Assembly (NCBI GenBank): GCA_963749075.1
Contig: CAVVLJ010000020.1
Location: forward strand, 64,001-128,000
Direction of reading: 5' to 3'
Source of the DNA: an uncultured Pseudomonadota bacterium
Lineage (GTDB): Bacteria; Pseudomonadota; Alphaproteobacteria; JACZXZ01
Length of the DNA: 64,000 bases
In this document: in pieces, positions 30,003 to 50,622 of the stretch
Layout of the letters: every line of letters begins with the position of its first letter
Numbering within the stretch: the stretch's first letter is position 1
Notes under the pieces: model-generated
What the model was told of the DNA's origin: nothing
The model's input: the letters and a program-made list of their open reading frames with translations, nothing else
The model's database searches: none
Program-made: the position numbers and the translations under genes

Positions 30003-30487
30003 CGCCGCAACTCCGCGAGCCGCGCCGACCAGCCGCCGTGGCCCGCGAGGCGGCAGCGCCGCGCCGCAGGTCCATCGGCGAACTCGAGCGCCACCTCGAG
30101 ACGCTCGCGCGGCAGGAGTGCTGCCAAGCGCTCGGGCCATTCGATGAGGCTCACCCCTTCGGCGAAAGCCTCCTCGATGCCGAGCTCATAGGCATCCTCC
30201 GGCAGCACGAGGCGATAGAGATCGAAGTGGTAGAGCTTGAGCGGCGGCAGCTCATAGAGCTGCACGAGGGTGAAGGTCGGGCTCGGCACCTCCTCGGTGC
30301 CGCCGAGCGCTCGGATGAAAGCGCGCGCGAAGGCCGTCTTGCCGACGCCGAGAGGACCTGAGAGCGCCAGCACGTCGCGCGGCCGCGCAAGGCGCGCCAG
30401 TGCCGCCGCGAGCCGCCCCGTCGCCGCGAGATCGGCGAGCTCGAGCTCGCGCTGTCCGGCGGAGACGTCCGAAACTCCCTGGCTCAT
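29999..30487 (-). CDS. tsaE: t6A biosynthesis ATPase
   Basis: G.LGVGKT, VPSPTFTL, HFDLYRL, IEWP. Confidence 0.95.
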   Translation of the reverse strand: MSQGVSDVSAGQRELELADLAATGRLAAALARLARPRDVLALSGPLGVGKTAFARAFIRALGGTEEVPSPTFTLVQLYELPPLKLYHFDLYRLVLPEDAYELGIEEAFAEGVSLIEWPERLAALLPRERLEVALEFADGPAARRCRLAGHGGWSARLAELRR

Positions 30488-30545
30488 CCCTCACCCTCCC
30501 ATTGCTGCGCAATGGGCCCCTCCCTCTCCCGCAAGCGGGAGAGGG
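30488..30545. repeat. REP-like palindromic unit (same family as 8971-9111)
   Basis: CCCTCACCC...CCCATTGC-TGC-GCAATGGG...CCCTCTCCCGCAAGCGGGAGAGGG. Confidence 0.75.
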
Positions 30546-30585
30546 ATTTCAGGCCATCTTCGAATGGCGAGGAGAGCCCTGCAAG

Positions 30586-32007
30586 CTAATACCGGTAATG
30601 GTCCGCCTTGAAGGGGCCTTCCGGGCTCATGCCGAGATAGGCCGCCTGCTTGTCGCTCAATCTGGTGAGCTTGGCGCCGACCTTGGCCAAGTGGAGGGCC
30701 GCCACCTTCTCGTCGAGGCGCTTCGGGAGCACGTGGACCTTCTTCGCGTATTTGTCGCGCTTGCCCCAGAGCTCGATCTGCGCCAGCACCTGGTTGGTGA
30801 AGGAGGCGCTCATCACGAAGCTCGGGTGGCCGGTGGCGCAGCCGAGGTTCACGAGGCGGCCCTCGGCAAGGAGGATGATGCGCTTGCCGTCGGGGAACTC
30901 GATCTCGTCGACCTGCGGCTTGACGTTGTGCCATTTGAAGTTGCGCAGGCCCGCCACCTGGATCTCGGAATCGAAGTGCCCGATGTTGCACACGATGGCG
31001 CGGTCCTTCATCCGCCGCATGTGCTCGACGGTGATCACGTCGACGTTGCCCGTGGCGGTCACGAAGATGTCGGCGCGCGGGGCCGCCTCCTCCATGGTGA
31101 CCACCTCGTAGCCCTCCATCGCCGCCTGCAGCGCGCAGATGGGATCGATCTCCGAGACGATGACGCGGGCGCCGGCGTGGCGCAGCGAGGAGGCCGAGCC
31201 CTTGCCCACGTCGCCGAAGCCGCACACCATCGCCACCTTGCCCGCCATCATCACGTCGGTCGCGCGCCGGATGCCGTCGACGAGGGATTCGCGGCAGCCG
31301 TAGAGGTTGTCGAACTTGGACTTGGTCACCGAATCGTTGACGTTGATGGCGGGGAAGAGGAGGCGGCCTTCGGCTGCCATCTGGTAGAGGCGGTGGACGC
31401 CGGTCGTGGTCTCCTCGGTGACGCCGCGGATCGACTTCCCGAGCGTCCCATACCAGCCGGGCTTGGCCTTGAGCCGCGTCTTGATGGCGGCGAAGAGCGC
31501 CTCCTCCTCCTCGTTCGCCGGCTTGGCGACGGCGGAAGCATCGCTCTCCGCGCGCATGCCGAGATGGACGAGGAGCGTCGCGTCGCCGCCGTCGTCGAGG
31601 ATCATGTTGGGCACGCCGCCGTCGGACCACTCGAAGATGCGGTGGGTGAAGTCCCAATATTCGGCGAGGCTCTCGCCCTTGTAGGCGAAGACGGGCGTGC
31701 CGGCCTCGGCGATCGCCGCCGCGGCATGGTCCTGGGTCGAGAAGATGTTGCAGGAGGCCCAGCGCACGTCGGCGCCGAGCGCCTTGAGCGTCTCGATGAG
31801 CACGGCGGTCTGGATCGTCATGTGGAGCGAGCCCGCGATGCGGGTGCCGGCGAGCGGCTGCGCCTTGCCGTACTCGGCGCGCAGCGCCATGAGGCCCGGC
31901 ATCTCGGTCTCGGCAATGGCGATCTCGCGCCGGCCCCAGCCGGCGAGCGAGATGTCGGCGACGCGGTAGTCCTCGTGCTTGGCGGCGGCGGCCTTGACGG
32001 CGGGCAT
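30586..32007 (-). CDS. ahcY: Adenosylhomocysteinase
   Basis: [49 protein letters not shown]. Confidence 0.98.
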
Positions 32008-32111
32008 GGCGGTCTCCTCGGGCGATGGCAACGGCCTTGCCGCCGGCGCCTGCGGGCGCCGGGGCGGCACGCGCGTCCTCATAACAGCGCTCCGGTCCCG
32101 CGGCAAGCGAA

Positions 32112-32131
32112 ATATAAAGAAATGTTTATAT
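32112..32131. promoter_or_regulatory. SahR-like operator upstream of ahcY
   Basis: ATATAAAG-AAAT-GTTTATAT near-palindrome; resembles the SahR box as I recall it (ATAAAG-N4-CTTTAT). Confidence 0.65.
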
Positions 32132-32180
32132 CGTTATGTTTGCGTTTGGCTCTGCGGGCTGGTTGCGCGCCGGGGCGCGC

Positions 32181-32981
32181 TCAGAACACGGGGAGGGGCG
32201 GCAGGTCGAGGCCTGTGTACTTCTTGTAAAGCGCCGCGAGCACGCCGTTCTGCGTGTTGAGGAAGATCCAGGTATTGATCCACTGCCTGAGCTCGAAATC
32301 GCCGGGCCGCACGATCGGAGCGTAATAGGCCGTCGTCACGTTCAGCTTGGTCTCGATCTTCTTGTCCGGATTGCCGTCCGCCACGGTCTTGCCGGCAAAG
32401 GACGTCATCGCGACGGCGTCGACCTGGCCCGAGAGCAGCGCCTGGATGGTGGCGCCGATGTCGTCGAACCAGACGATCTTGGTGCCTTCCGGCGCCATCT
32501 TCGGCACGGTCGCCTCCTCGAGCGTAGCGCGGGTGATGCCGATGCGCTTGCCGACGAGATCGGCAGGCGTCTTGATGGCGACGCTCTCTGGCCCGAAGAT
32601 GACGATCGAAAGCGCTCCGTCGGGGTTGCAGAACATCACCGCCTTGGCGCGGTCGGCGGTGACCGAGATCGAGGCGATGGTGACGTTGGCGCGGCCGGCC
32701 AGGAGGGCCGGGATGCGGCCGGTCGAGGGGACTTGCACGAACTCGAGCTCGGCGCCCATGTCCTTCGCCATCTGGCGGGCGACGGCGACATCCGAGCCGT
32801 CGGGCTGGCCGTCCTTGCCGAGCACGCCGAAGGGCGGATTGCCGACATCGATGGCGACGCGGAGCTTCTTCTCCTTGAGGATCCTGTCGAGCGTGCTTTC
32901 GGCCTCAGCCGGTTTGGCCGCCAGCATCGCCGGCATGGCGATGAGGAGCGCCAGTACCACCCATCTCAGAGCGACCTTCAT
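32181..32981 (-). CDS. Polar amino-acid ABC substrate-binding protein (family 3), orphan
   Basis: Signal peptide, TLDRI...LRVA..NPPF, G.DV.VA, RIPAL. Confidence 0.88.
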   Translation of the reverse strand: MKVALRWVVLALLIAMPAMLAAKPAEAESTLDRILKEKKLRVAIDVGNPPFGVLGKDGQPDGSDVAVARQMAKDMGAELEFVQVPSTGRIPALLAGRANVTIASISVTADRAKAVMFCNPDGALSIVIFGPESVAIKTPADLVGKRIGITRATLEEATVPKMAPEGTKIVWFDDIGATIQALLSGQVDAVAMTSFAGKTVADGNPDKKIETKLNVTTAYYAPIVRPGDFELRQWINTWIFLNTQNGVLAALYKKYTGLDLPPLPVF

Positions 32982-33030
32982 GGCATCTACTCCCTCGTTC
33001 AATAGGTTTGTAAGTCGTTGATTCGATGTG

Positions 33031-33072
33031 ATGATAGCGCTTACATTGTAGCAGCTTCTGGGCGCGAGTCAA
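33031..33072 (-). promoter_or_regulatory. Sigma70 promoter with LacI-type operator for the SBP gene
   Basis: Minus strand TTGACT-N16-TACAAT, immediately followed by the near-palindrome ATGATAGCGCTTACAT (33031-33046). Confidence 0.7.
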
Positions 33073-33164
33073 GCGCCCGCGGCGGCGGGTCGTGTCCTAA
33101 TTTGTCGGTCCCCGTTAAAATAGCAGCGACGACAGAACACATCAGCACCTTGGCAGGAGGACTG

Positions 33165-33845
33165 ATGCCTTGTCCCAAGGATTTCTCTCGCATAAATTCA
33201 ACGGGTCGGGCCTATGCCGGAAGCCAGCGGCAAATCCAGACGTACGTGAACGAAAGAACACACGCGCTCAATTCTGCCGTCGCGCAATCCCTGTCGCGGT
33301 GCGACCTCGATGAGAAAGACATTCATTGGGTGTCGCCCCTGGCGGCGGACACGTACTCGGAATACCGAGACTCGGAATTTCTGGAACGCGTCGGACTTGG
33401 CCTTCTCGCGCCCCGGCTTCTAGAGTTCTGGCCGCGAGGTGGACCGTGCTGGGACGCACTGGCACGGATTGAAGGTGGATGCCTCCTCATAGAGGCAAAG
33501 AGCCATGTGCAGGAGATTTATGGTAGGGGCTGCCGAGCCTCTCCTCGAAGCAAGCAGAAGATTCAGGCAGCATTCCAAGCAACGAAGGCTTGGCTCGGGA
33601 TTTCTCCTGATATTGACTGGACCGGACGGCTCTATCAGTCCGCGAATCGATATGCGAGCCTGTACTTCCTGAGAGAGATTGCGGGGGTTCAAGCGTTTCT
33701 GGTCAACCTGTACTTCGTTGGCGACCCGATTGCACCGACGCCGATGACGAGAGAAGACTGGGATACCGAAATCGGGTGCGTCAATCGAGAACTCGGCATT
33801 GTTCGCGAAGTGCCGTACAGCGCGGCCGTCTTCCTGACGGCGTAA
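33165..33845 (+). CDS. Hypothetical protein with a PD-(D/E)XK-like nuclease motif
   Basis: GGAGG RBS; FWP.GGP.WDAL...LIEAK and YQ.ANR; lower GC than the flanks. Confidence 0.6.
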   Translation: MPCPKDFSRINSTGRAYAGSQRQIQTYVNERTHALNSAVAQSLSRCDLDEKDIHWVSPLAADTYSEYRDSEFLERVGLGLLAPRLLEFWPRGGPCWDALARIEGGCLLIEAKSHVQEIYGRGCRASPRSKQKIQAAFQATKAWLGISPDIDWTGRLYQSANRYASLYFLREIAGVQAFLVNLYFVGDPIAPTPMTREDWDTEIGCVNRELGIVREVPYSAAVFLTA

Positions 33846-33953
33846 TGAGCAAGGGCAAAGCACTCCGCTGAGGGACAAGCCGGAGGCAACGTACGCCTCC
33901 AAACGGGACGTCTCGCGCGAGAAGTCCCCATGGAAATGGGTCAGTCGACATGA

Positions 33954-34406
33954 TTATGCGTCTATGGCCTCAGACTCGCGTGTCATCTTCGCACACAGGG
34001 CTTCCATCTTATGGCGTGGGAGCTGGTCAACCAGATATGCCCTGATTAGTGATCCGGCTTCCTTTAAAGACTCTTCGGTTGGAATACATGAAATCGTTAG
34101 GTACTCGATTTCGTCGTCGTACCCTTTCATACCGAAGGTATTCATCCACGCCCTAAATATCAAAGAATCGTCCACTGGCATCACCTGATTGATAAGAATG
34201 CCCTTTCGCAGCCGGCGCGAAACCCGACTGAAAATACCATTGCCGTCGTAAGGTGGTTTGTCGGGAAACCATTCGTTCCATTCAATCTTTGAAGGACCAT
34301 GTACAACAGAATCGAATACGGCATTCCAATGCTTCTGCGCCTTAACATAGTCAGCGTGTTCTGTACGAAAACGAGGAAACATAATACGGGGTTCGGTCTT
34401 CTTCAT
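33954..34406 (-). CDS. Hypothetical protein (possible immunity/antitoxin partner)
   Basis: 150-aa low-GC ORF; ATGA overlap with the upstream 102-aa ORF. Confidence 0.6.
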   Translation of the reverse strand: MKKTEPRIMFPRFRTEHADYVKAQKHWNAVFDSVVHGPSKIEWNEWFPDKPPYDGNGIFSRVSRRLRKGILINQVMPVDDSLIFRAWMNTFGMKGYDDEIEYLTISCIPTEESLKEAGSLIRAYLVDQLPRHKMEALCAKMTRESEAIDA

Positions 34407-34711
34407 GGTACGAAAGCCCGTCCTGCGAAAACTTGGATGTCCACACGTCGGTTATCGCGATCTCCTCTGACCAGACAGGTCTTTGGTCTCACAGGCGCGG
34501 TAACGCCGCCAGCACGCCGACACACGTGTATATAGGTTTCGGCACAATCTATTGCACCAAGTCGTCGATTCAGTTCGTCCGCTGTCAACCGATCGACTAA
34601 GTCATTAAGCATATTTAGGCCCTCGTCTGCAGTAAGGGGCTGATTCCTATCCCACGCCTCCGAATCCTCTACGCCGCCCCCTTGCATTTGGATTCGTCCG
34701 CGATTTTGCAA
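34403..34711 (-). CDS. Small hypothetical protein (possible toxin-tip-like domain)
   Basis: RGRIQMQGGGVEDSEAW..PLT..GL and RVDIQV..G.AF; start codon uncertain. Confidence 0.55.
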   Translation of the reverse strand: MQNRGRIQMQGGGVEDSEAWDRNQPLTADEGLNMLNDLVDRLTADELNRRLGAIDCAETYIHVCRRAGGVTAPVRPKTCLVRGDRDNRRVDIQVFAGRAFVP

Positions 34712-34739
34712 AACCCTTCACCCTTGCCGTGTATCGCCA

Positions 34740-34934
34740 TTATCCCCGGAGCTTTCGCTGTATCTGATTTCGTTCCTCGTAGGGCTGGTGCTCTTCCAGC
34801 AGTTCATCCCGGCGCACACCCAGAAGCCGACAAGTCAAAGAACGAAACCGCTCCATGGGCGCAGCGTCACCACCCGAAATCTCCCGCCTGGCGATTTCAC
34901 GTATCGTCTTGGTCTGATTTGGGCGATGCTTCAT
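34740..34934 (-). CDS. Small helical ORF directly downstream of the IS1595 transposase
   Basis: PMERFRSLT.RLLGV.RDEL; overlaps the transposase 3' end; start uncertain. Confidence 0.45.
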   Translation of the reverse strand: MKHRPNQTKTIREIARREISGGDAAPMERFRSLTCRLLGVRRDELLEEHQPYEERNQIQRKLRG

Positions 34935-35339
34935 GTCCGGTCAGTCGCTCATAGCTGAGGCGCCGTCCTGGAACCGATGATAGCACGGCAGCGAAACGGG
35001 CGTAATCATCTTCGCTGCGCCCATTGAAACGGAAAACCTGTTCATCGAGGTGCCGTTCTTACAATTGGCGATCATCCAGATCGCCGCGAACCACTTGTCG
35101 AGCCCAACCGGACTGTATTCGAAAACCGTTCCGACCTTCGCTGAGAATCGCCGCTTCTCATGGTTCTCCTGGCATTCCCAAACGCGAGGGATTGGGATGC
35201 AGCGAACGTCGATTCTGTCACAGATCGAGCAGCGCATGCCGCTCGGCCACCGCTAGGCAACGATCGACCGCAGGGATACGTCGGGGTCAGCAACATAGCG
35301 GATCGTCCGGAGGAGGGTTTTGGGGGCATGGTCTACCAT
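34897..35339 (-). mobile_element. IS1595-family transposase relic: in-frame stop and deletion of the DDE core
   Basis: N-terminal MVDHAPKTL..ADPD..*RWPSGMRC..C..WEC..RFS.KVGTVFE.S...LDKW..AIW..NCKNG is joined at about 35050, out of frame, to the C-terminal HLDEQVFRFN..RF..GRRLSYERLTG. Confidence 0.8.
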
Positions 35340-35439
35340 CCCCATATCCTAGTGGTGCCCTAACCGTGGACGGTTACGTGGGATTTCGCCGCAGCGCTGC
35401 GCCGCTGCTTGCGCGCGCCGCCTCGTCTCATAGCGCCCG

Positions 35440-36465
35440 CTATGCACGCCGGGACCCGCCAGCGGCGCGCGCCGGTCCGGTCGATTGCCGGATGATGACG
35501 TCGGCCTCGAGCTTGATCTTGCGCGGGCCCGCCCGGCCCGCGATCCAGTCGAGGAGAAAATCGGCGATGCGCGTGCCGATGCGGTCGGCCGGGATGTGGA
35601 CCGTGCTCAGCGGCGGGTCGAGCTCGGCCACGATCTCGAGGTCCGAGAAGCCGGCGACCGAGACATCCTGCGGGACGCGGACGCCGAGCGCGCGGCACTC
35701 GAAGAGCGCGCCGATGGCGAGCGTGTCCGTCGTGCAGCAGATCGCCGTGAGATCGGGATGCTGCGTCAAGAGCGCCCGCGTGGCGCTGCGGCCTGCGACG
35801 ATCGTCTGCGCCACCTCGCGGATTTGCGCGGGCGGGACGGCGATGCCGCGCTCGCCCAAGCAATCGGTGATGCCCTTGAGGCGCGCCGCGATCCTGTCGT
35901 TGAGGCTGGGCGGAGCGGTGACGATGCCGAAGCCGCGGTGGCCGAGCTCGACGAGATGGCGCGTCAGCTCGAAGGACCCGCTGCGATTGTCGAAGCCGAT
36001 GCAGGGATGCGGGTTCTCCCCGTCGAACTGGTAGGTGTTGACATAAGGGAGATTGCGCAAGCGCAGCAGCTCGTAGACCTCCGGCGCATGGCGGTTGCCG
36101 ACCAGTGCCATGCCGTCGACGCCGCGCTCGATGAGGGCACGGACCTGCCGCACCTCCTTCTCCTCGTCGTAGTGGCTGGCGGCGACCAGGAGCTGGTAGC
36201 CGCTCTCCTCGAGGCGCCGCTGCAGCGCCTCGACGCCGACCGCGAAGATGCCGATGCCGAACGTCGGTACGACGTTGCCGATCGTGAAGGAATGGCGCGA
36301 CGCGAGCGCCCGCGCGGCACCGTGGCGGAGATAGTCGAGCTCGCCCATGGCGCTCATGACGCGCTCGCGAACCTCCGGACTCACCTTCGCCGGATGATTG
36401 AGAACGCGCGACACCGACGCCGAGGAGACGCCGGCCCGCCGAGCCACATCGCTGAGAGTAGCCAT
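35440..36465 (-). CDS. LacI-family regulator (paralog of 13678-14718)
   Basis: MATLSDVARRAGVSSASVSRVLN, ARALASR, CIGFDNR, PPLSTV. Confidence 0.92.
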   Translation of the reverse strand: MATLSDVARRAGVSSASVSRVLNHPAKVSPEVRERVMSAMGELDYLRHGAARALASRHSFTIGNVVPTFGIGIFAVGVEALQRRLEESGYQLLVAASHYDEEKEVRQVRALIERGVDGMALVGNRHAPEVYELLRLRNLPYVNTYQFDGENPHPCIGFDNRSGSFELTRHLVELGHRGFGIVTAPPSLNDRIAARLKGITDCLGERGIAVPPAQIREVAQTIVAGRSATRALLTQHPDLTAICCTTDTLAIGALFECRALGVRVPQDVSVAGFSDLEIVAELDPPLSTVHIPADRIGTRIADFLLDWIAGRAGPRKIKLEADVIIRQSTGPARAAGGSRRA

Positions 36466-36545
36466 GAGAGGAACCATAATGGCGGGCGGCGGGAATGGCC
36501 AGACGCCTCTCCGGCTGGAGCCTCGCGCCTTGCGCAGCGGCCGCC

Positions 36546-37205
36546 TTACCCCACCCCTTCGAAATCGTCGAGCAGTGCCGCGATGCGGCCTGAATCCCAT
36601 TGCGTCATGATCATCTCGGCGCGCCTCGTCGCCTCGCGCTGGTCGAGCGCTCTGATGCGCTGCTTGATGCGCGGCAGTGCCGCCGTCGGCATCGAGAGGT
36701 CGCGGATGCCGAGGCCCAAGAGGAGCGGGGTATAGCGCGCGTCGCCCGCCATCTCGCCGCAGAGACAGAGCGGGATGCGCGCGCGCAAGGCGGCACCCGC
36801 GGCGAACTGGATGAGGCGGAGGACGGCCGGGTGGAGGGGATTGTAGAGATAGGCGACCTGCTCGTCGCCGCGGTCGATGGCGAGGGTGTACATGGTGAGG
36901 TCGTTGGTGCCGATCGCGAAGAAGTCGGACTCGAGTGCCAGCGCGTCGGCGGCGAGTGCGGCGCCCGGCACCTCGATCATGACGCCGAGCTTGGGCACTT
37001 CGGCCGCCGCCTTGACGCCCTGGCGCTTAAGGCGGGCGTGCAGCTTGTGCAGGATCGCCTTCACCTGGCGCACCTCGCCGAGCGAGGCGATCATGGGGAG
37101 GAGGATGCGCACCTCGCCGTGGGCGCCCGCGCGCAGCATGGCGGCGAGCTGGGCCTCCAAGAGCTCCGGATGCTTGAGCGAGAGGCGGATGGCGCGCAGG
37201 CCGAG
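36546..37205 (-). pseudogene. Duplicated 3' fragment of ptsI
   Basis: Encodes LGLRAIR..MIEVP..IGTNDL..CGEMAG..FEGVG*; lacks the N-terminal and phospho-His domains. Confidence 0.9.
36556..37205. repeat. 650-bp direct repeat, copy 1
   Basis: Identical by line-by-line reading to 40416-41065 (offset 3860). Confidence 0.95.
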
Positions 37206-37366
37206 CGCCGTGCGACCGCGTAGCTGATCTCGATCCGGCGGCACCAAACGACGTCTGCAATGCGGTAGGACCGTTTCGGGTGTATTCGATTTTGTCGCAG
37301 ACTTGTGAAAAAAAAATCTATAGAGGTAGACGCCGGGTCACGAACAATGTCCGTCGGGGGGGGCAA

Positions 37367-40328
37367 ATGGCACCGCCAAGGGCGATTATCGAACTCGTTG
37401 AGCGGTTTCACGAGCAATTCGACAACTACGTTTCGCCCAAATACAACGAGACCCAAGTCCGGCGCGAGTTCATCGATCCTCTCTTTAAAGCGCTTGGGTG
37501 GGATGTTGACAATACCCAGGGCTTCTCCGAAGCGTACAAAGAAGTTGTTCATGAAGAGGCCATAAAAATTGCCGGCGATCATCGGGCTCCCGATTACAGC
37601 TTCCGCATCGGTGGTGGGCGCAAATTCTTTCTAGAAGCGAAGAAACCCGCCGTCAGCATCAATGATGAGTTCGCCCCAGCATATCAGCTTCGTCGCTATG
37701 CATGGTCAGCCAAGCTCCCCCTATCGGTAATAACGAGTTTCCGCGAATTCGCCGTCTATGATTGTCGTGTCAGGCCAGCTAAAATCGATAGGCCGTCTGT
37801 AGCTCGCATCATGTATCTCACGTTCGATGAGTACGGGGCGCGATGGGACGAAATCGCGGGTGTCTTCTCTAAGGAAGCAATTTACAAGGGTGGCTTTGAT
37901 CGCTTTGTCGACTCGAACAAGCTAATCAGGGGCACAGCTGAATTCGATGACGACTTCCTTGCTGAAATCGAATCGTGGCGCGACGTTCTCGCTCGGAACA
38001 TGGCATTGCGAAATCCGCGACTCGCCCAGGAGGAATTAAATTATGCAGTTCAGTCAACCATCGATCGCATCATCTTTCTTCGAATAGGCGAGGATCGAGG
38101 ACTAGAGCCATACAAGCAGCTGCAGAGCATATCGGTAGGCGACCAAGTCTACGGAGCACTCGTAAAACTCTTCAAAAGCGCGGACGAGCGATATAATTCC
38201 GGCTTGTTTCATTTCCGCCCGGAGACGGGTCGTGCAGAAACTCCCGACACGATCACTCCCAGGCTTATCGTCGATGATAGACCGCTCAAAGGGATTATCT
38301 CGGCTCTCTATTATCCGGAGAGCCCGTATGAATTCTCTGTCGTTGGCGCCGACATCCTTGGTCAAGTTTATGAACAATTTCTTGGAAAAATTATACGACT
38401 TACACTCGGACATCGCGCAGTAATCGAGGAGAAGCCAGAAGTCAAGAAGGCTGGAGGTGTATATTATACACCAACATATATAGTAAATTACATTGTTCGA
38501 CAAACCTTGGGTATATGGCTCAAAGGCAAGTCGGTAGCGCAAACAAAGAAATTGCGGATCCTCGATCCGGCATGCGGCTCTGGATCCTTCCTCATCGCTG
38601 CATACCAATATCTATTGGATTGGCATCTCGAACGGTATTCGAGACAGCCGGAAAATCACAGGAGTCTAATCTATCGTGGTGGGCATGGAGAATGGCGCCT
38701 CACGTCCGCCGAGCGCAAGCGTATTCTCACTACGCATATCTTTGGCGTCGACGTAGATCAGCAGGCCGTCGAAGTGACCAAGCTTTCGCTGATGCTGAAG
38801 GTGCTCGAAGGGGAGTCGTCTGACAGCTTGAAAAAGCAATTGGAGATGTTCCACGAACGTGCGCTGCCAGATTTGGGGACGAATATTAAATGTGGCAATT
38901 CGCTAATTGGTCCGGAATTCTATGCCAATGAGCAATTCGACATGCTGGACGACACAAAGAGAGGGAAGGTAAACCTATTCGATTGGGAGGGAGATGGTGG
39001 ATTTAAAGAGACAATGTCCCGCGGCGGGTTCGACGTGATCGTCGGAAATCCTCCCTACGTCAATGCCTGGATCATGTATGAAACCCACCCTGAAATACGT
39101 AATTATATTAATTCCGCGAAGCTCTACCGCTCCGCAGACAGACATTGGGACGCGTACATTTTATTTCTCGAAAAAAGCCTGATGCTTCTTCGATCTTCTG
39201 GATATTTGTCCTTCATCATTCCATTTTCGTACTGCATTCAGAAATACGCTACATTATCACGCAAGATAATAACCGAGGAATGTACGATTTCGAGCATAGC
39301 TGACCTTCGCACCGTGCGTGTTTTCAAAAATGTCCCGGTAATCACAATTATTCCCGTTGTTATCAGGTCAAAACCTTCTCCTCATCATCGAATTCAGATA
39401 CTCGGACCAGGTCACGGAGCAACGGATCGGCACCCTGGCGATATCGCGCTCCGTCACAAAGTCGCGCAAGGGGTGTTCCGAGATGGGATTGAATGCATGT
39501 GGCGCCTCGATTTGCGCCCTACAGCAGTGTCGGCGTGCGATGCAATAGAGGCAGCTAGTATCACGGTGGGTGATATTTCTTGGGTCAATTATGGCGCTCA
39601 GATGTCCAGTAAAAAGAAAAAAGAGTTTGGAAAGGAGTATGTCTTGCGAGACCGTCGGGCATCGAAGACATGCAAAAAGACGATCTCTGGGCGCGACCTG
39701 TACCGGTACAATATCACGTGGAACGGGCAATATGTTGAATGGGCCCTCGCACCAAAAATGTATGGACCGCGAGAGTCGTGGTTTTTTGAGACACCGAAGC
39801 TAATGATTCGAGATATTACCGGCACTCATCGGTTAGAACTGTCGTTGGACGAAAGCAAGCTCTATTGCGATCACACAGTGTTGTGTTGTTTGCGTATCTG
39901 TGATGCCGCTGGCCATCACAGATTTGATGAGCGCGCCGTTAGGCTCTCCGCCGAATACCCGCTTGAGCTTCTGTTAGGTCTTCTTGCGAGCCGGCCGATT
40001 TCCGCCTTTTACTATTGGAAGTTAACGGGCGAAGGAGTTCGGACGGGCGGTGGGTTCCATACATATCCGAACACAATCCGCGCGCTCCCCGTATTTGATG
40101 TCACTCGCGCATCAAGATTCTCAGGAACATCTCGCAAAGAACATCATAACGCTGGTACGACGGATTCTTGACCTTCGACAGGGAGCGAGCACAGCTAGAA
40201 CCCCCCAATCGCGGACAGCACTCGAGCGGCAAATCTCAGCGCTAGATGATCAGATCGATGCCGATGTGTACAAGATTTACAACCTAAATGCTGAGCAAAT
40301 TCGAATGATCAAGGAAGCTACCAAATGA
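37367..40328 (+). CDS. Type IIG (Eco57I/TaqI-C-like) fused restriction endonuclease-N6 methyltransferase; C-terminal tail frameshifted
   Basis: NETQVRREFIDP..LGWD and PDY..FLEAKK nuclease; GVYYTP, ILDPACGSGSFL, GNPPY. The main ORF stops at 40171, while the tail LERQI.ALD.QID..VY.IY.L (to 40328) is in the +1 frame. Low GC. Confidence 0.88.
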
Positions 40329-40405
40329 CCCGGTAAAAAAAGTTGAGATGAGTTATTCCCGGAAGCAGATTTCCTCCGTGCTAGCAAAATGGTCCCGGCC
40401 TACTT

Positions 40406-42193
40406 TCACCCGAGTCCTTCGAAATCGTCGAGCAGTGCCGCGATGCGGCCTGAATCCCATTGCGTCATGATCATCTCGGCGCGCCTCGTCGCCTCGCGCT
40501 GGTCGAGCGCTCTGATGCGCTGCTTGATGCGCGGCAGTGCCGCCGTCGGCATCGAGAGGTCGCGGATGCCGAGGCCCAAGAGGAGCGGGGTATAGCGCGC
40601 GTCGCCCGCCATCTCGCCGCAGAGACAGAGCGGGATGCGCGCGCGCAAGGCGGCACCCGCGGCGAACTGGATGAGGCGGAGGACGGCCGGGTGGAGGGGA
40701 TTGTAGAGATAGGCGACCTGCTCGTCGCCGCGGTCGATGGCGAGGGTGTACATGGTGAGGTCGTTGGTGCCGATCGCGAAGAAGTCGGACTCGAGTGCCA
40801 GCGCGTCGGCGGCGAGTGCGGCGCCCGGCACCTCGATCATGACGCCGAGCTTGGGCACTTCGGCCGCCGCCTTGACGCCCTGGCGCTTAAGGCGGGCGTG
40901 CAGCTTGTGCAGGATCGCCTTCACCTGGCGCACCTCGCCGAGCGAGGCGATCATGGGGAGGAGGATGCGCACCTCGCCGTGGGCGCCCGCGCGCAGCATG
41001 GCGGCGAGCTGGGCCTCCAAGAGCTCCGGATGCTTGAGCGAGAGGCGGATGGCGCGCAGGCCGAGTGCGGGGTTGACCGAGGGCCCGACGTGGCCGCCCA
41101 AGGAATAGGCGAGCTTGTCGCCGCCGATGTCGAGGGTGCGCATGGTGACCGGGCGGCCCGCCATGCCCTCGACGAAGGTCCGAAGCGCCTCATACTGCTC
41201 GTCCTCGCCGGGCAGGTCGTCGCGGTTCATGAAGAGGAACTCGGTGCGCAGCAGGCCGATGCCCTCGGCCCCCACCGCAAGGGCATGCTCGAGCTCGCGC
41301 GGCAGCTCGACGTTGACCTGGAGCGTCACGCGCACGCCGTCGCGCGTCACCGCCGCGAGCTTGGAAAGGCGCGCGAGCTTGTGCTCCTCGCGCTGGAAGG
41401 CGCGGCGCTGCGCCTCGTACTTGGCGAGCGTGGCGTCCGAGGGATTGACGATGACGCGCCCGCCGGTGCCGTCGATGACCGCGAGCGTGCCCGGTGCCGT
41501 GCCGACCAGGAGACCGCCCACGCCGAGCACGGCGGGGAGGCCCAACGAGCGCGCCATGATCGCGGTGTGGCTCTCGGCACCGCCGAGCACGGTCGCGAAG
41601 CCGCCGATGCGGTCGGGATCGAGGAGGGCGGTGTCCGCCGGCGTGAGCTCCTCGGCGAGCACGACGCTCCCCACCGGCAGCGCCGAGAAGGCCTGGTAGG
41701 GCCGCTGCATGAGGTTGCGCACCAGCCGCGCCGCCACCTCGCGGATGTCGTCGGCGCGGCTCGCGAGATACTCGTCGCCCATGCCGGCGAAGCCCTTGGC
41801 GATCTCGTGCGTCTCGGCCTGCACCGCCGCCTCGGCGTTGATCCCCTCGCCGGCGATGCGCCCGTCGGCGCCGCGCAGCAGGCGCGAGCCCGCCAGCATC
41901 TGGAGATGGGCGTCGAGGAGGAAGCCGAGCTCCTCGCCGGCCGCCCCTCCGAGCGCCATGGCCTTGAGCTTGAGCTTGTGGAGCTGCTTGCGCGAGCGCT
42001 CGACCGCCTCCTTGAGGCGCGCTCGCTCGCCTGCGAGCTGCTCCGCGGGCACGCGGTACTCGGGCACCTCGAGGGCACCCGCCTCGCGCACATGGGCGGG
42101 TCCGATCGCCACCCCCGGCGCCACGCCGAGGCCATGGAACACGCGTTCGCGACCCTCGCTTCCCCGCCTCGCTGGTGCGCCGCTGCGCGCCAT
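40406..42193 (-). CDS. ptsI: PEP-protein phosphotransferase, Enzyme I (no GAF domain)
   Basis: GG.ESHTAIMARS, GIGLLRTEF, RTLDIGGDK, NPALGLR, IGTNDL, CGEMAG. Confidence 0.95.
   Translation of the reverse strand: MARSGAPARRGSEGRERVFHGLGVAPGVAIGPAHVREAGALEVPEYRVPAEQLAGERARLKEAVERSRKQLHKLKLKAMALGGAAGEELGFLLDAHLQMLAGSRLLRGADGRIAGEGINAEAAVQAETHEIAKGFAGMGDEYLASRADDIREVAARLVRNLMQRPYQAFSALPVGSVVLAEELTPADTALLDPDRIGGFATVLGGAESHTAIMARSLGLPAVLGVGGLLVGTAPGTLAVIDGTGGRVIVNPSDATLAKYEAQRRAFQREEHKLARLSKLAAVTRDGVRVTLQVNVELPRELEHALAVGAEGIGLLRTEFLFMNRDDLPGEDEQYEALRTFVEGMAGRPVTMRTLDIGGDKLAYSLGGHVGPSVNPALGLRAIRLSLKHPELLEAQLAAMLRAGAHGEVRILLPMIASLGEVRQVKAILHKLHARLKRQGVKAAAEVPKLGVMIEVPGAALAADALALESDFFAIGTNDLTMYTLAIDRGDEQVAYLYNPLHPAVLRLIQFAAGAALRARIPLCLCGEMAGDARYTPLLLGLGIRDLSMPTAALPRIKQRIRALDQREATRRAEMIMTQWDSGRIAALLDDFEGLG
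40416..41065. repeat. 650-bp direct repeat, copy 2 (within intact ptsI)
   Basis: Identical to 36556-37205. Confidence 0.95.
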
Positions 42194-47083: not shown

Positions 47084-47830
47084 ATGGCCGATCGGGGAAG
47101 CGCCGGGACGCCCTCGCCCGGGGACGAAGCGCGCCGGCTCATGCGCGCGGCGGACCGGGCGACGCTTGCCACCAGCCTGCAGCGCGCGGGCCGCGAGGGC
47201 TGGCCCTATGCCTCGCTCGTCATGGCGGCACTGGCGCCCGATCTGAGCCCGCTCCTCCTCCTCTCGGACCTCGCCGACCATGCCAAGAACATCGCCCGGG
47301 ACGCCCGCGTCTCGCTCCTCTTCGACGGCACGGGCGGCCTCGAGGAGCCGCTGACCGGCCCCCGCTGGACACTCCTCGGGCGCGCCCGCGAGAGTGCCGC
47401 GGCCGGGGATAGGGCGCGCTACCTGAGGCGCCATCCGAGTGCCGAAAACTATATGCAGTTCAAGGACTTCCGCCTCTATCGCGTCACCCCGGAGAGCGGC
47501 CATCTGGTGGCCGGCTTCGGCCGCATCCATTGGCTCGAGGCAAGGGATTTCCTGCCCGAGGGCAAGGCGGCTCCGGCCCTTGCCGAGCAAGAGGCCGACG
47601 TCCTCAAGCACATGAACGGGGACCATGGCGATGCCGTGGCCCTCTACGCGCGGAAGCTCCTCGGGCTCGCCGGCGAGGGCTGGGTCATGACCGGCATCGA
47701 CCCCGAGGGCATCGACCTGCGCGCGGGCGGCCGCACGGCGCGCCTCGCCTTCGAGCGCCCGCTCGGCGGCGCCGCGGACGTCCGCCCGGCGCTCGTGGAG
47801 CTCGCCCGGCGGGCCAGGGAAGAGGGCTAG
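47084..47830 (+). CDS. HugZ/PNPOx-like protein with C-terminal DUF2470
   Basis: [34 protein letters not shown]. Confidence 0.85.
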
Positions 47831-47963
47831 CCCCCCGGCTCACGGCCGGCTCATGGCCGTTGCGCGGCCGGGGTGCCGCTTGTATCTTCGCCGCCTGCCA
47901 ACGCGAGGGACCGGCAGGGCGCTTGAAGCGGTCCCCGATGCATCGTCAAGTCGGGAGGAAGCC

Positions 47964-49574
<1,611 letters not shown>

Positions 49575-49712
49575 GGGGCCGAGCCGCGTCTCTCTCGCCT
49601 GCTGACAAGCGCCAGACCGACGAAGCTCTCAGCGGAGGGAACGCCCCGCTTTCCGGCAGGACCTGTCGCCGGACTGAAGGAAACCGCTGCCGCTTGCCAA
49701 CGGCACGACCGT

Positions 49713-50282
49713 TCAGTTTTCGCCTCTGCGCAACCTGATGCGGCTGGTCCGCCATGCGGCCCAGTCGACCGGCTCGGAGTCGAGGACGCTGAGGTCGGCA
49801 GGGGTGAAGCGCTCCGTGAAGATCACGAGGTTCTGGCAATGCCATCGCGCGCTCGGGGCGAGAATTCCATCGAATCCGAGAAACGCGGCGGCATCGCCGA
49901 TCTCCCGGGTCCGCTCGTAATTGAGGCTTCTATAGGAGTCCATCGTCACTCCTAAGGCCTCTATGGCTGCCAGATCGGCGATCCGCAAGGTCCGACTGGT
50001 CCTCACCGAGATGCGATGCAGCACCGACCTGATCTTTGACGGGAAAACCGGCTGGCGGCTGAGGTGGAAGTGCATCTCCTCGAGCGCGCCGTCGCGCTCC
50101 AACGATGTGTAGATCACGTCGAAGGTGCCGGGATCCCATCGCGCCGCCGCAGGATAACCCTCTAACGGGTGGCGCTCCTCGCGAACGACGCGCCAGACAT
50201 GCCCTTCGAAGGCCACGCCCTGATGTGCGTCCAACGCATCGAGCAGGGCCAGATCACGCGCCTGCCGATTTGCCGCTGCCAT
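49713..50282 (-). CDS. RES-domain toxin (second copy)
   Basis: WRVVRE, RWD, YTSLE..GA.EE..FH, APSAR..NLV.F. Confidence 0.88.
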   Translation of the reverse strand: MAAANRQARDLALLDALDAHQGVAFEGHVWRVVREERHPLEGYPAAARWDPGTFDVIYTSLERDGALEEMHFHLSRQPVFPSKIRSVLHRISVRTSRTLRIADLAAIEALGVTMDSYRSLNYERTREIGDAAAFLGFDGILAPSARWHCQNLVIFTERFTPADLSVLDSEPVDWAAWRTSRIRLRRGEN

Positions 50283-50283
50283 G

Positions 50284-50622
50284 TCAAATATAGGCGCCGG
50301 CGTCCAGACGCTCGATCACGGCGAGAACCTCCTCGGTCCGGTCCGCGTTGACGAGGTCGATTGCCCGCTGGTTGTTCAAAAGCGGATGGCGCGAATGGAG
50401 CCAGAGCCGCGTTTCATCGGGGGTATAGAAGTCCGACAGCCGATCGACGACATAGCGTAGGTCGGCGATGACGGTCTGCGTCCGTAGGCTCGGCGACCCA
50501 TTGCCATGCGACCAGCGCGAAACGGTGGCTGTGGACACATCGACAATGTTGGCGATGTCCTTTCCTTGAAGTCCGCCGCGCGATCGCAGATCGTCGAGAA
50601 TTCTGGCAACCGCCGTGCTCAT
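50284..50622 (-). CDS. HTH + Xre/MbcA/ParS antitoxin
   Basis: DIANIVDVSTATVSRW HTH; RLWL.SRH.LL...RAIDL. Confidence 0.85.
   Translation of the reverse strand: MSTAVARILDDLRSRGGLQGKDIANIVDVSTATVSRWSHGNGSPSLRTQTVIADLRYVVDRLSDFYTPDETRLWLHSRHPLLNNQRAIDLVNADRTEEVLAVIERLDAGAYI

Follow-up and report, generated by a model that had tools for sequence, protein, structure and literature searches.

Introduction

Insertion of a restriction-modification (R-M) unit together with a long duplication of its target was reportedly described by Nobusato et al. in 2000, and how R-M, selfish and defence genes enter genomes without a mobility enzyme has been open since the first descriptions. The present work concerns a locus of this type in a window of 64,000 nucleotides (nt) from an uncultured alphaproteobacterium (assembly GCA_963749075.1, contig CAVVLJ010000020.1, positions 64,001 to 128,000), in which a cassette of low guanine-plus-cytosine (GC) content with a predicted Type IIG R-M gene lies between two identical copies of the 3' end of ptsI, the gene for PTS enzyme I. 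The ptsI insertion belongs to the known kind called 'insertion with long target duplication' and, taken alone, is an ordinary example of it, though unusually long and clean. What is new here is that the same genome carries at least three further strong loci of identical architecture, plus weaker and older ones. The added value lies in this within-genome series, with its allele-like differences between the copies.

Furuta, Abe and Kobayashi (2010; PMC2853133) reported such insertions for all R-M types and in several phyla and, in the passages drawn on here, left the mechanism open. [quoted passage not shown] The class comprises inserts of less than 20 kb (3210 bp at ptsI) that hold R and M functions, lie between repeats of more than 30 bp (650 bp at ptsI) and carry no mobility gene. 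The ptsI cassette agrees with it on each of these counts and in its foreign composition, which bears out the kinship with the Helicobacter pylori R-M insertions suggested in the original prediction for this DNA, made from the letters alone. The repeats given in those passages measure 46-423 bp, possibly longer in the supplement, whereas the one described here is a perfect 650 bp. The copies here also differ, in a coding-preserving manner, just outside the identical core, and the loci form a series in one genome with toxin-antitoxin cargo among them.

Other known systems share part of this architecture. In the portion of their paper considered here, Johnston et al. (2013; PMC3784515) describe how transformation gives rise to tandem duplications when a fragment that is repeated in part undergoes interchromatid integration. 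Campbell-type, ends-in and interchromatid integration have the same topology as the present loci, with a homologous duplication flanking the insert and no dedicated recombinase. In that work, however, the repeats are copies of insertion sequences (IS) and the duplications span 100-900 kb, whereas here the repeat is the tail of a housekeeping gene and the unit measures 2.6-6.5 kb. Integrase islands at tRNA genes or gene 3' ends are alike in their position behind a gene end, in supplying a replacement end and in their flanking direct repeats; the present loci have no integrase, no tRNA and no common core (as judged by eye), and their repeats are hundreds of bases long. A composite transposon is bounded by IS copies, whereas the repeat at this locus is ptsI coding sequence.

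Results and Discussion

The cassette behind ptsI

Positions are those of the window, which corresponds to C20:64001-128000 of the source genome (G000); elsewhere coordinates are preceded by the contig number. The assembly, of metagenome type, consists of 23 contigs (5.49 Mb, the largest up to 1.38 Mb, no N) and is 96% complete with 5.15% contamination. Relatives of the same genus are denoted G001-G005, and those of the same family G006, G007 and G010. The parts of the locus are as follows.

36546..37205, minus strand: orphan, a 5'-truncated ptsI 3' fragment ending in EGVG and TAA (Pfam PEP-utilizers_C, positions 105-291 of 293)
36556..37205: repeat copy 1, in the orphan (650/650 identity to copy 2)
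37206..37279: junction DNA from the truncated end of the orphan to the R-M open reading frame (ORF); not ptsI-like, single copy in G000 (BLAST)
37280..40171, plus strand: Type IIG R-M fusion gene, ORF of 963 amino acids (aa), low GC (Pfam, PADLOC)
40050..40328, plus strand: displaced frame with the conserved R-M C-terminus (...IDADVYKIYNLNAEQIRMIKEATK before the stop; homologue alignment)
40329..40405: low-GC spacer of 77 nt from the R-M end to the ptsI stop codon
40406..42388, minus strand: intact ptsI gene for PTS enzyme I, listed at 660 aa (Pfam PEP-utilisers_N, PEP-utilizers, PEP-utilizers_C)
40416..41065: repeat copy 2, within intact ptsI (650/650 identity to copy 1)

Ungapped comparison at an offset of 3860 revealed that 36556-37205 and 40416-41065 agree in 650 of 650 bases as a single perfect run, in accordance with self-BLAST, which finds exactly two copies of the repeat in G000. 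A repeat of this length cannot have arisen by chance. The segment between the copies (37206-40415) comprises 3210 bp with a GC content of 0.50, and GC values of 0.44-0.54 over 37200-40400 stand against 0.67-0.74 in the flanks. The R-M ORF is the sole real gene inside it, the remaining ORFs of at least 60 aa all overlapping this one. No tRNA gene was detected by ARAGORN in the whole window, profile searches with Pfam and NCBIfam gave no match to integrase or transposase families in the cassette or its neighbours, and a promoter and terminator scan returned nothing exceeding shuffle expectation. The feature is a real insertion with a long duplication, in which a 3.2-kb segment of foreign composition, devoid of mobility genes, lies directly behind the ptsI stop and is followed by a 5'-truncated ptsI copy. 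Both the perfect duplication and the low-GC cargo with an R-M gene and nothing else (no integrase, transposase or tRNA) had been read correctly from the letters in the original prediction, the ORF list, Pfam and ARAGORN being in agreement on the cargo. A third detail, an alanine codon written GCG in one copy and GCA in the other at the opposite edge, did not hold. Past 37205 the copies share two of three bases, namely two matches after one mismatch, and then no identity; the detail was given no weight because the codons beyond are unrelated.

Two coding ends of ptsI

A closer look at the tail edge showed that the last 660 nt of intact ptsI consist of the repeat copy plus a tail of its own. The intact gene ends in GAA GGA CTC GGG TGA (EGLG, stop) and the orphan in GAA GGG GTG GGG TAA (EGVG, stop). 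Six of the 10 bases past the core match, with frame and stop kept, and beyond the stops the match drops to random level. All four differences keep the reading (one is synonymous, two turn Leu into Val and one turns TGA into TAA), so that the two distinct, homologous coding ends already noticed in the letters are confirmed. In the genus relatives ptsI ends in AALA or AALG before the stop, with the codons CTC GCG TGA or CTC GGG TGA. The derived Glu-Gly is common to both G000 tails; the intact tail is ancestral-like, with CTC GGG TGA as in G002, and all four differences are derived in the orphan.

Such a pattern would be expected of two working gene ends and, judged from the codons, is unlikely for a decaying pseudogene. 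Since the differences preserve coding, the two tails appear to come from two closely related lineages, and given such an origin the sharp border 36555/36556 would mark a boundary of recombination or of conversion.

Sister loci in the same genome

Comparison of G000 with itself for repeats of at least 150 bp and at least 95% identity, no more than 40 kb apart, yielded nine pairs, all of them direct. The four strong cassettes and, from a more sensitive scan that adds two-copy repeats of 113-390 bp with 87-94% identity, the weaker loci are the following.

ptsI, C20:100556/104416: repeat 650 bp, 100% identity; cargo 3.2 kb, Type IIG R-M
ABC exporter gene, C16:945005/951549 (945005-952116): repeat 568 bp, 96.5%; cargo 6.0 kb, GC 0.555
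Oligopeptide ABC ATPase gene (Dpp), C20:266729/269815 (266729-270265): repeat 451 bp, 96.9%; cargo 2.6 kb, DUF4238, AbiEi and AbiEii
UbiD gene, C4:47514/50069 (47514-50403): repeat 335 bp, 96.1%; cargo 2.2 kb
Weaker loci: C21:70879-72446, C17:1142769-1143592, C4:395423-397136, C20:804457-807877, C20:554417-556323

The cargo at the ABC locus contains a 248-aa ORF, an 892-aa KaiC-like ATPase, a 5-methylcytosine (m5C) methylase split in two ORFs and Vsr. That at the UbiD locus contains an m5C methylase of which the junction leaves the C-terminal half, together with a 391-aa ORF without family match and Vsr. In these three sister loci the cargo has a GC content of 0.56-0.58, the repeat ends 0-23 nt past the host stop and the intact gene abuts the cargo, as at ptsI. 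Neither integrase nor transposase genes were found in or beside the four strong cassettes, and no common motif was seen at their cargo ends by eye, no motif program having been run. An empty site, that is, one repeat copy aligning with both flanks, is present in five of five genus relatives for the Dpp locus and in three of five for the UbiD locus. The ABC gene has a close orthologue in G004 alone, at a contig end. For ptsI, neither the loci of 10 relatives nor 35 metagenome stretches yielded an empty site, a feature that Furuta et al. (2010; PMC2853133) also list for the class.

In the weaker loci the duplicated 3' ends belong to a gene for a 976-aa protein, the SecA and YmdB genes, a methyltransferase gene and a gene for a 399-aa protein, with 0.6-2.9 kb of lower-GC cargo. 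A RES toxin paired with an Xre-type antitoxin makes up one of these cargoes; the remaining ones have no assigned family or hold a DUF4143 fragment. Taken together, the perfect 650-bp case, four allele-like loci and four decayed ones form a graded series, which is material for testing a route by recombination in a carried gene tail.

Differences between the copies

The loci were placed in two groups by identity (94-97% versus at most 91%) and not by their synonymous ratio. In the 94-97% group, synonymous codons among those changed number 15/18 at the ABC locus, 8/9 at YmdB, 6/10 at UbiD and 5/9 at Dpp. The pooled value of 34/46 lies far above the neutral expectation on these sequences (0.24-0.28; binomial P about 5e-11). 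The four loci of at most 91% identity gave a neutral-like 22/75, one orphan among them having acquired a stop codon, and the synonymous share differs between the groups (Fisher P 2e-6). Where outgroups were available, derived changes were distributed between the intact and the orphan copy as 7:11, 4:5 and 6:6. An orphan decaying in place would be expected to show an approximately fourfold excess of derived changes, mostly non-synonymous. The synonymous excess, together with derived changes on both copies, favours the view that the copies of the younger loci would have evolved as working gene ends in separate lineages and then been joined.

The end of the SecA orphan echoes the ptsI tail: CGC GTT TAG stands against AGG GTC TGA, both reading R, V and stop in spite of five changes. 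The differences at the ABC locus span the whole repeat (positions 24-534 of 555), and those at Dpp are clustered at both repeat edges.

The Type IIG R-M gene

The cassette is present as a single copy in G000 (BLAST). The likely start of the R-M protein is the Met at residue 30 of the ORF, and Pfam matches were obtained to Eco57I (1.8e-32), N6_Mtase, MmeI_Mtase, HSDR_N and TaqI_C, with HSDR_N at residues 54-165, Eco57I/N6_Mtase at 357-706 and TaqI_C at 800-917. The best PADLOC model is REase_MTase_IIG (6.1e-181). The patterns NPPY (residue 590), DPACGSGSF (residue 429) and D...EAK are also present, which we take to be methylase and nuclease motifs and which lie upstream of the frameshift described below. 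Nuclease, methyltransferase and target-recognition parts are predicted within one polypeptide, the hallmark of Type IIG. Their order is that of the Eco57I/MmeI-like single-chain R-M-S enzymes, an HSDR_N nuclease, a gamma-type N6-adenine methylase and a TaqI_C specificity region. The present protein differs in that it shows at most 60% identity to any homologue among the best 80 and in that its last approximately 60 residues are out of frame.

The homologue set consists of these best 80 of 458 matching stretches, from 599 stretches in all, and covers many phyla; none of these 80 loci has ptsI, LacI, a solute-binding protein (SBP) gene or ahcY nearby. The homologues (993-1028 aa) follow one frame to about 40111-40147 and then a second frame ending at 40328. 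The alignment thus indicates that the gene as assembled is frameshifted near 40095-40125, with the conserved last approximately 60 residues displaced. One of the short-read contigs introduced below (run X1) ends at 40111 and the next one listed starts at 40208, leaving 40112-40207 uncovered among the contigs listed; a polymorphism or low cover at the frameshift spot is possible.

Surroundings of ptsI in this genome and its relatives

The synteny upstream of ptsI is kept in 10 of 10 relatives, and the orthologues in the five genus relatives are 81% identical. The interval on the other side, between ptsI and a putative ahcY that marks its far end, is variable. Beyond the orphan the window contains the following features.

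35440..36465, minus strand: LacI-family regulator with host-like GC at third codon positions, directly after the orphan (Pfam LacI, Peripla_BP)
33003..35400: second low-GC insert (GC 0.47-0.60, from composition), which splits the LacI gene from the SBP gene
32181..33002, minus strand: SBP gene (Pfam SBP_bac_3)
30586..32106, minus strand: putative ahcY (adenosylhomocysteinase), named from reading of the translation alone

The putative ahcY is the neighbour of ptsI in family relatives (tblastn matches next to ptsI, 77-89% in G007, G006, G010, G001 and G003). G007 has 82 nt between the two genes; the corresponding distance in G006 and G010 is about 0.75 kb. In G001 a radical-SAM gene lies in an interval of 2.2 kb, and the interval of G003, with transport and metabolic genes, extends over 11.3 kb. 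In G000 its 8.3 kb contain, in order from ptsI, the R-M cassette, the orphan, the LacI gene, the second low-GC insert, the SBP gene and ahcY. Orthologues of the LacI and SBP genes occur in G004 at 82-84% nucleotide identity (84% for SBP), only 168 nt apart. The 82% LacI orthologues of G004 and G002 lie at contig ends, the one in G004 adjoining SBP, and further ORFs that do not align to the window follow LacI and SBP there instead of ahcY. No relative examined has a LacI gene downstream of ptsI. Since these orthologues lie elsewhere in the genus, the neighbour of the orphan is native to the genus and foreign to its position. The statement that the orphan abuts native high-GC DNA therefore holds for the origin of that DNA, which belongs to the genus, and fails for its place, the block sitting elsewhere in relatives and being split here by the second insert.

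The ORFs of the second insert (33018..33845 plus, 33954..34406 minus, 34403..34711 minus and 34941..35237 minus) had no Pfam, NCBIfam or PADLOC match. The last of these may resemble an IS1595-type zinc-ribbon N-terminus, a likeness that was not confirmed by any search. The plus-strand ORFs 30400..32229 and 32136..33005 were discarded as shadow frames, the real genes being on the minus strand.

The further proposal that ptsI is a swappable defence hotspot found no backing in the survey. None of 40 other genomes searched contains a partial ptsI duplicate, though three genus contigs end 0.7-1.9 kb behind ptsI and could hide repeats. No R-M homologue was found behind ptsI in the downstream regions of 10 relatives, which are other species. 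The annotated genes of the ptsI interval in G001 and G003 include no defence gene, all being ordinary metabolic or transport genes.

Read evidence

Read evidence was taken from Logan contigs of three runs (X1, X2 and X3) of one soil-metagenome study, the cover gaps of X2 and X3 being uninformative. These runs are probably the source sample and hence not independent support. The X1 contigs 35983-36585, 36556-36899, 40208-40445, 40826-41065 and 41036-41231 each have an end either at a border of the repeat or 30 nt within it. A piece bridging 37205/37206 is not among the X1 contigs listed, and the flanking bin depths of 0.6 and 3.8 fit such a piece. All four junction types are compatible with the X1 short-read contigs; these would look alike whether the structure is tandem or an empty site is accompanied by a circle. 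No listed piece spans the stretch, and amplification likewise lies beyond what contigs can show.

With regard to the assembly itself, the contig ends of C5, C14 and C16 overlap at 97.8-99.6% identity (C5 with C14 and with C16), and a 7.7-kb block occurs twice at 98% identity (C21:729125-737558 and C4:23887-31692). These overlaps and the doubled block are signs of a second strain or of a recent duplication in the assembly.

A proposed recombination in the gene tail

The explanation placed first here is that RecA-type homologous recombination in the ptsI tail would have joined the resident gene to incoming DNA of a closely related lineage, a route whose chances we judge to be about even. The cargo would already have been attached to a ptsI end in the donor lineage and would have entered by a single crossover of a circular unit of tail and cargo, or by 'ends-in' or interchromatid integration of a linear piece, which would give the same product. 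That product would be an intact ptsI with the incoming tail, followed by the cargo, the orphan tail and the resident downstream DNA. The perfect 650 nt might be accounted for in two ways: most of the repeat may have been copied from the resident during gap repair, or the copies may have been homogenised by a later gene conversion that could not extend to the final 10 nt, where homology runs out. The pattern of differences at Dpp fits conversion, and those at UbiD and ABC do not. Retention of so unstable a duplication may be aided by addictive cargo, and the presence of R-M and toxin-antitoxin modules among the cargoes fits retention through post-segregational killing. From these patterns we infer the route of recombination, the donor and the cargo's stabilising role. 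The idea that the cargo arrived with its own ptsI tail and integrated by homologous recombination thus gains from the two distinct coding ends and from the stronger signature at the sister loci. It falls short of proof; the orphan end may instead have been replaced by a later tract, with which the LacI block came in. Within the open-access papers searched no paper was found that proposes homologous integration via a carried gene tail for such insertions.

Several points weigh against recombination in the tail. Were the donor diverged, differences would be expected within the repeat, but its 650 positions show none, so that gap repair, conversion or a near-identical donor has to be invoked. The synonymous bias at the sister loci is equally expected from later core-genome recombination overwriting one copy, and also from a two-strain assembly chimera. 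Neither an empty site nor an alternative allele of ptsI was found in the 10 relatives, which are other species (81% aa identity) with different downstream genes. Likewise, of the 35 stretches returned by a metagenome scan with a 20-nt pattern of the ptsI tail, not one was related to ptsI, LacI or the R-M gene. No close R-M relative, and no R-M homologue beside ptsI, occurs among the best 80 of 458. Ku (PF02735) was not found in G000 (96% complete), and end-joining circularisation of a random fragment is therefore without support; any circle is more likely to form in a donor already carrying the structure, through recombination between its two copies. Finally, the X1 depths speak for the structure in that the repeat piece 36556-36899 has 15.1 and the junction pieces on the LacI and R-M sides have 7.5 and 7.9, though another repeat piece (40826-41065) has only 6.0; these are depths of contigs, which cannot rank parts of a stretch.

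A wider proposal, which we put forward tentatively and consider rather doubtful, is that small addictive or defence modules (R-M, AbiE, RES-Xre) of this lineage might act as recombinase-free 'homology-armed' mobile units with the 3' end of a housekeeping gene as portable attachment site. Such a unit would loop out by recombination between the copies, enter naive relatives behind the same gene by RecA single crossover or ends-in integration, and then be held by post-segregational killing. If true, it would give 'insertion with long target duplication' the mechanism that it lacks.

Other explanations

It is possible, though on balance unlikely, that the insertion arose in situ with a long target duplication, by a break-related mechanism that is left open. 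The copies would have been identical at birth, and a later recombination tract would have replaced the last bases of the orphan and the DNA beyond (the EGVG end and the LacI block). Identity in 650 of 650 bases is what a fresh duplication gives, and the tail agrees with it in that the intact gene keeps the genus-like CTC GGG TGA and all the changes fall on the orphan. A later tract would also suit the LacI-SBP block, which is out of synteny here and has another location in G004 and G002, and the class as documented in the passages of Furuta et al. (2010; PMC2853133) comes without an explained mechanism. In situ duplication, however, needs two events where one suffices. It is further at odds with the ABC locus, where the differences run through the whole repeat, with the Dpp locus, where they gather on the cargo-proximal side and not beside the downstream gene, and with the UbiD locus, where the truncated methylase at the junction suggests that the cargo is an arbitrary fragment of a larger island.

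Quite improbable is the absence of any chromosomal tandem, whether through a two-strain assembly chimera or through an empty chromosome plus a free 3860-bp circle. The metagenome-type assembly with its 5.15% contamination leaves room for such an artefact, and the overlapping contig ends and the doubled 7.7-kb block point to a second strain being present. Phasing across 650 bp is beyond short-read contigs, an empty site together with a circle would be consistent with the four junctions too, and allelic, synonymous-biased differences are expected of strain chimeras. Nevertheless, the junction between cargo and repeat must exist in real DNA, and a junction contig agrees with the depth in bins 37006-37407. 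No replication gene is apparent on a 3.9-kb circle, the sole ORF of which matches restriction and methylase families, and contigs of up to 1.38 Mb without N suggest reads longer than 3.9 kb. The four old loci, with neutral-type decay that includes a stop codon, mean that real duplications of this architecture exist in G000.

Insertion of the cassettes at gene ends by a site-specific recombinase acting in trans (an integrase, an Xer-like enzyme or another) is less probable still: the repeats do end at, or within 23 nt of, the host stop in the loci checked, and elements that integrate at gene 3' ends with a replacement end are well known (a separate class in the passages of Furuta et al. 2010; PMC2853133), but the four strong cassettes have no integrase or transposase in or beside them, the repeat lengths (335-650 bp) and periods (2.6-6.5 kb) are both variable, the cargo ends share no motif that the eye could find, one junction halves a methylase gene and the window contains no tRNA gene.

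Other repeats in the genome

Several further repeat pairs were not accepted as sister loci. Of the five remaining pairs of the first comparison, the one on C22 is an IS pair, C16:1367151 consists of paralogous genes and C21:316237 belongs to a multi-copy repeat. High-GC spacers separate the copies at C16:176844 (MCP gene) and C17:801132 (citrate-lyase-like genes). In the more sensitive scan, ordinary genes or a transposase were seen at C2:47797 and C17:1158145. C16:469513, C2:153270 and C16:369705 were left out of the count.

One of these pairs deserves description in its own right. At C16:176844-179318 a 781-bp direct repeat (99.1% identity) with a 914-nt high-GC spacer involves a CHASE3/MCP chemoreceptor gene and a second partial ORF, and looks like a partial gene duplication without foreign cargo. 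Near the UbiD locus, a repeat of approximately 44 nt (L156:3365-3408) recurs at many sites in all six genus genomes (G000-G005) with 88-98% identity and is probably an intergenic element resembling the repetitive extragenic palindromic (REP) type.

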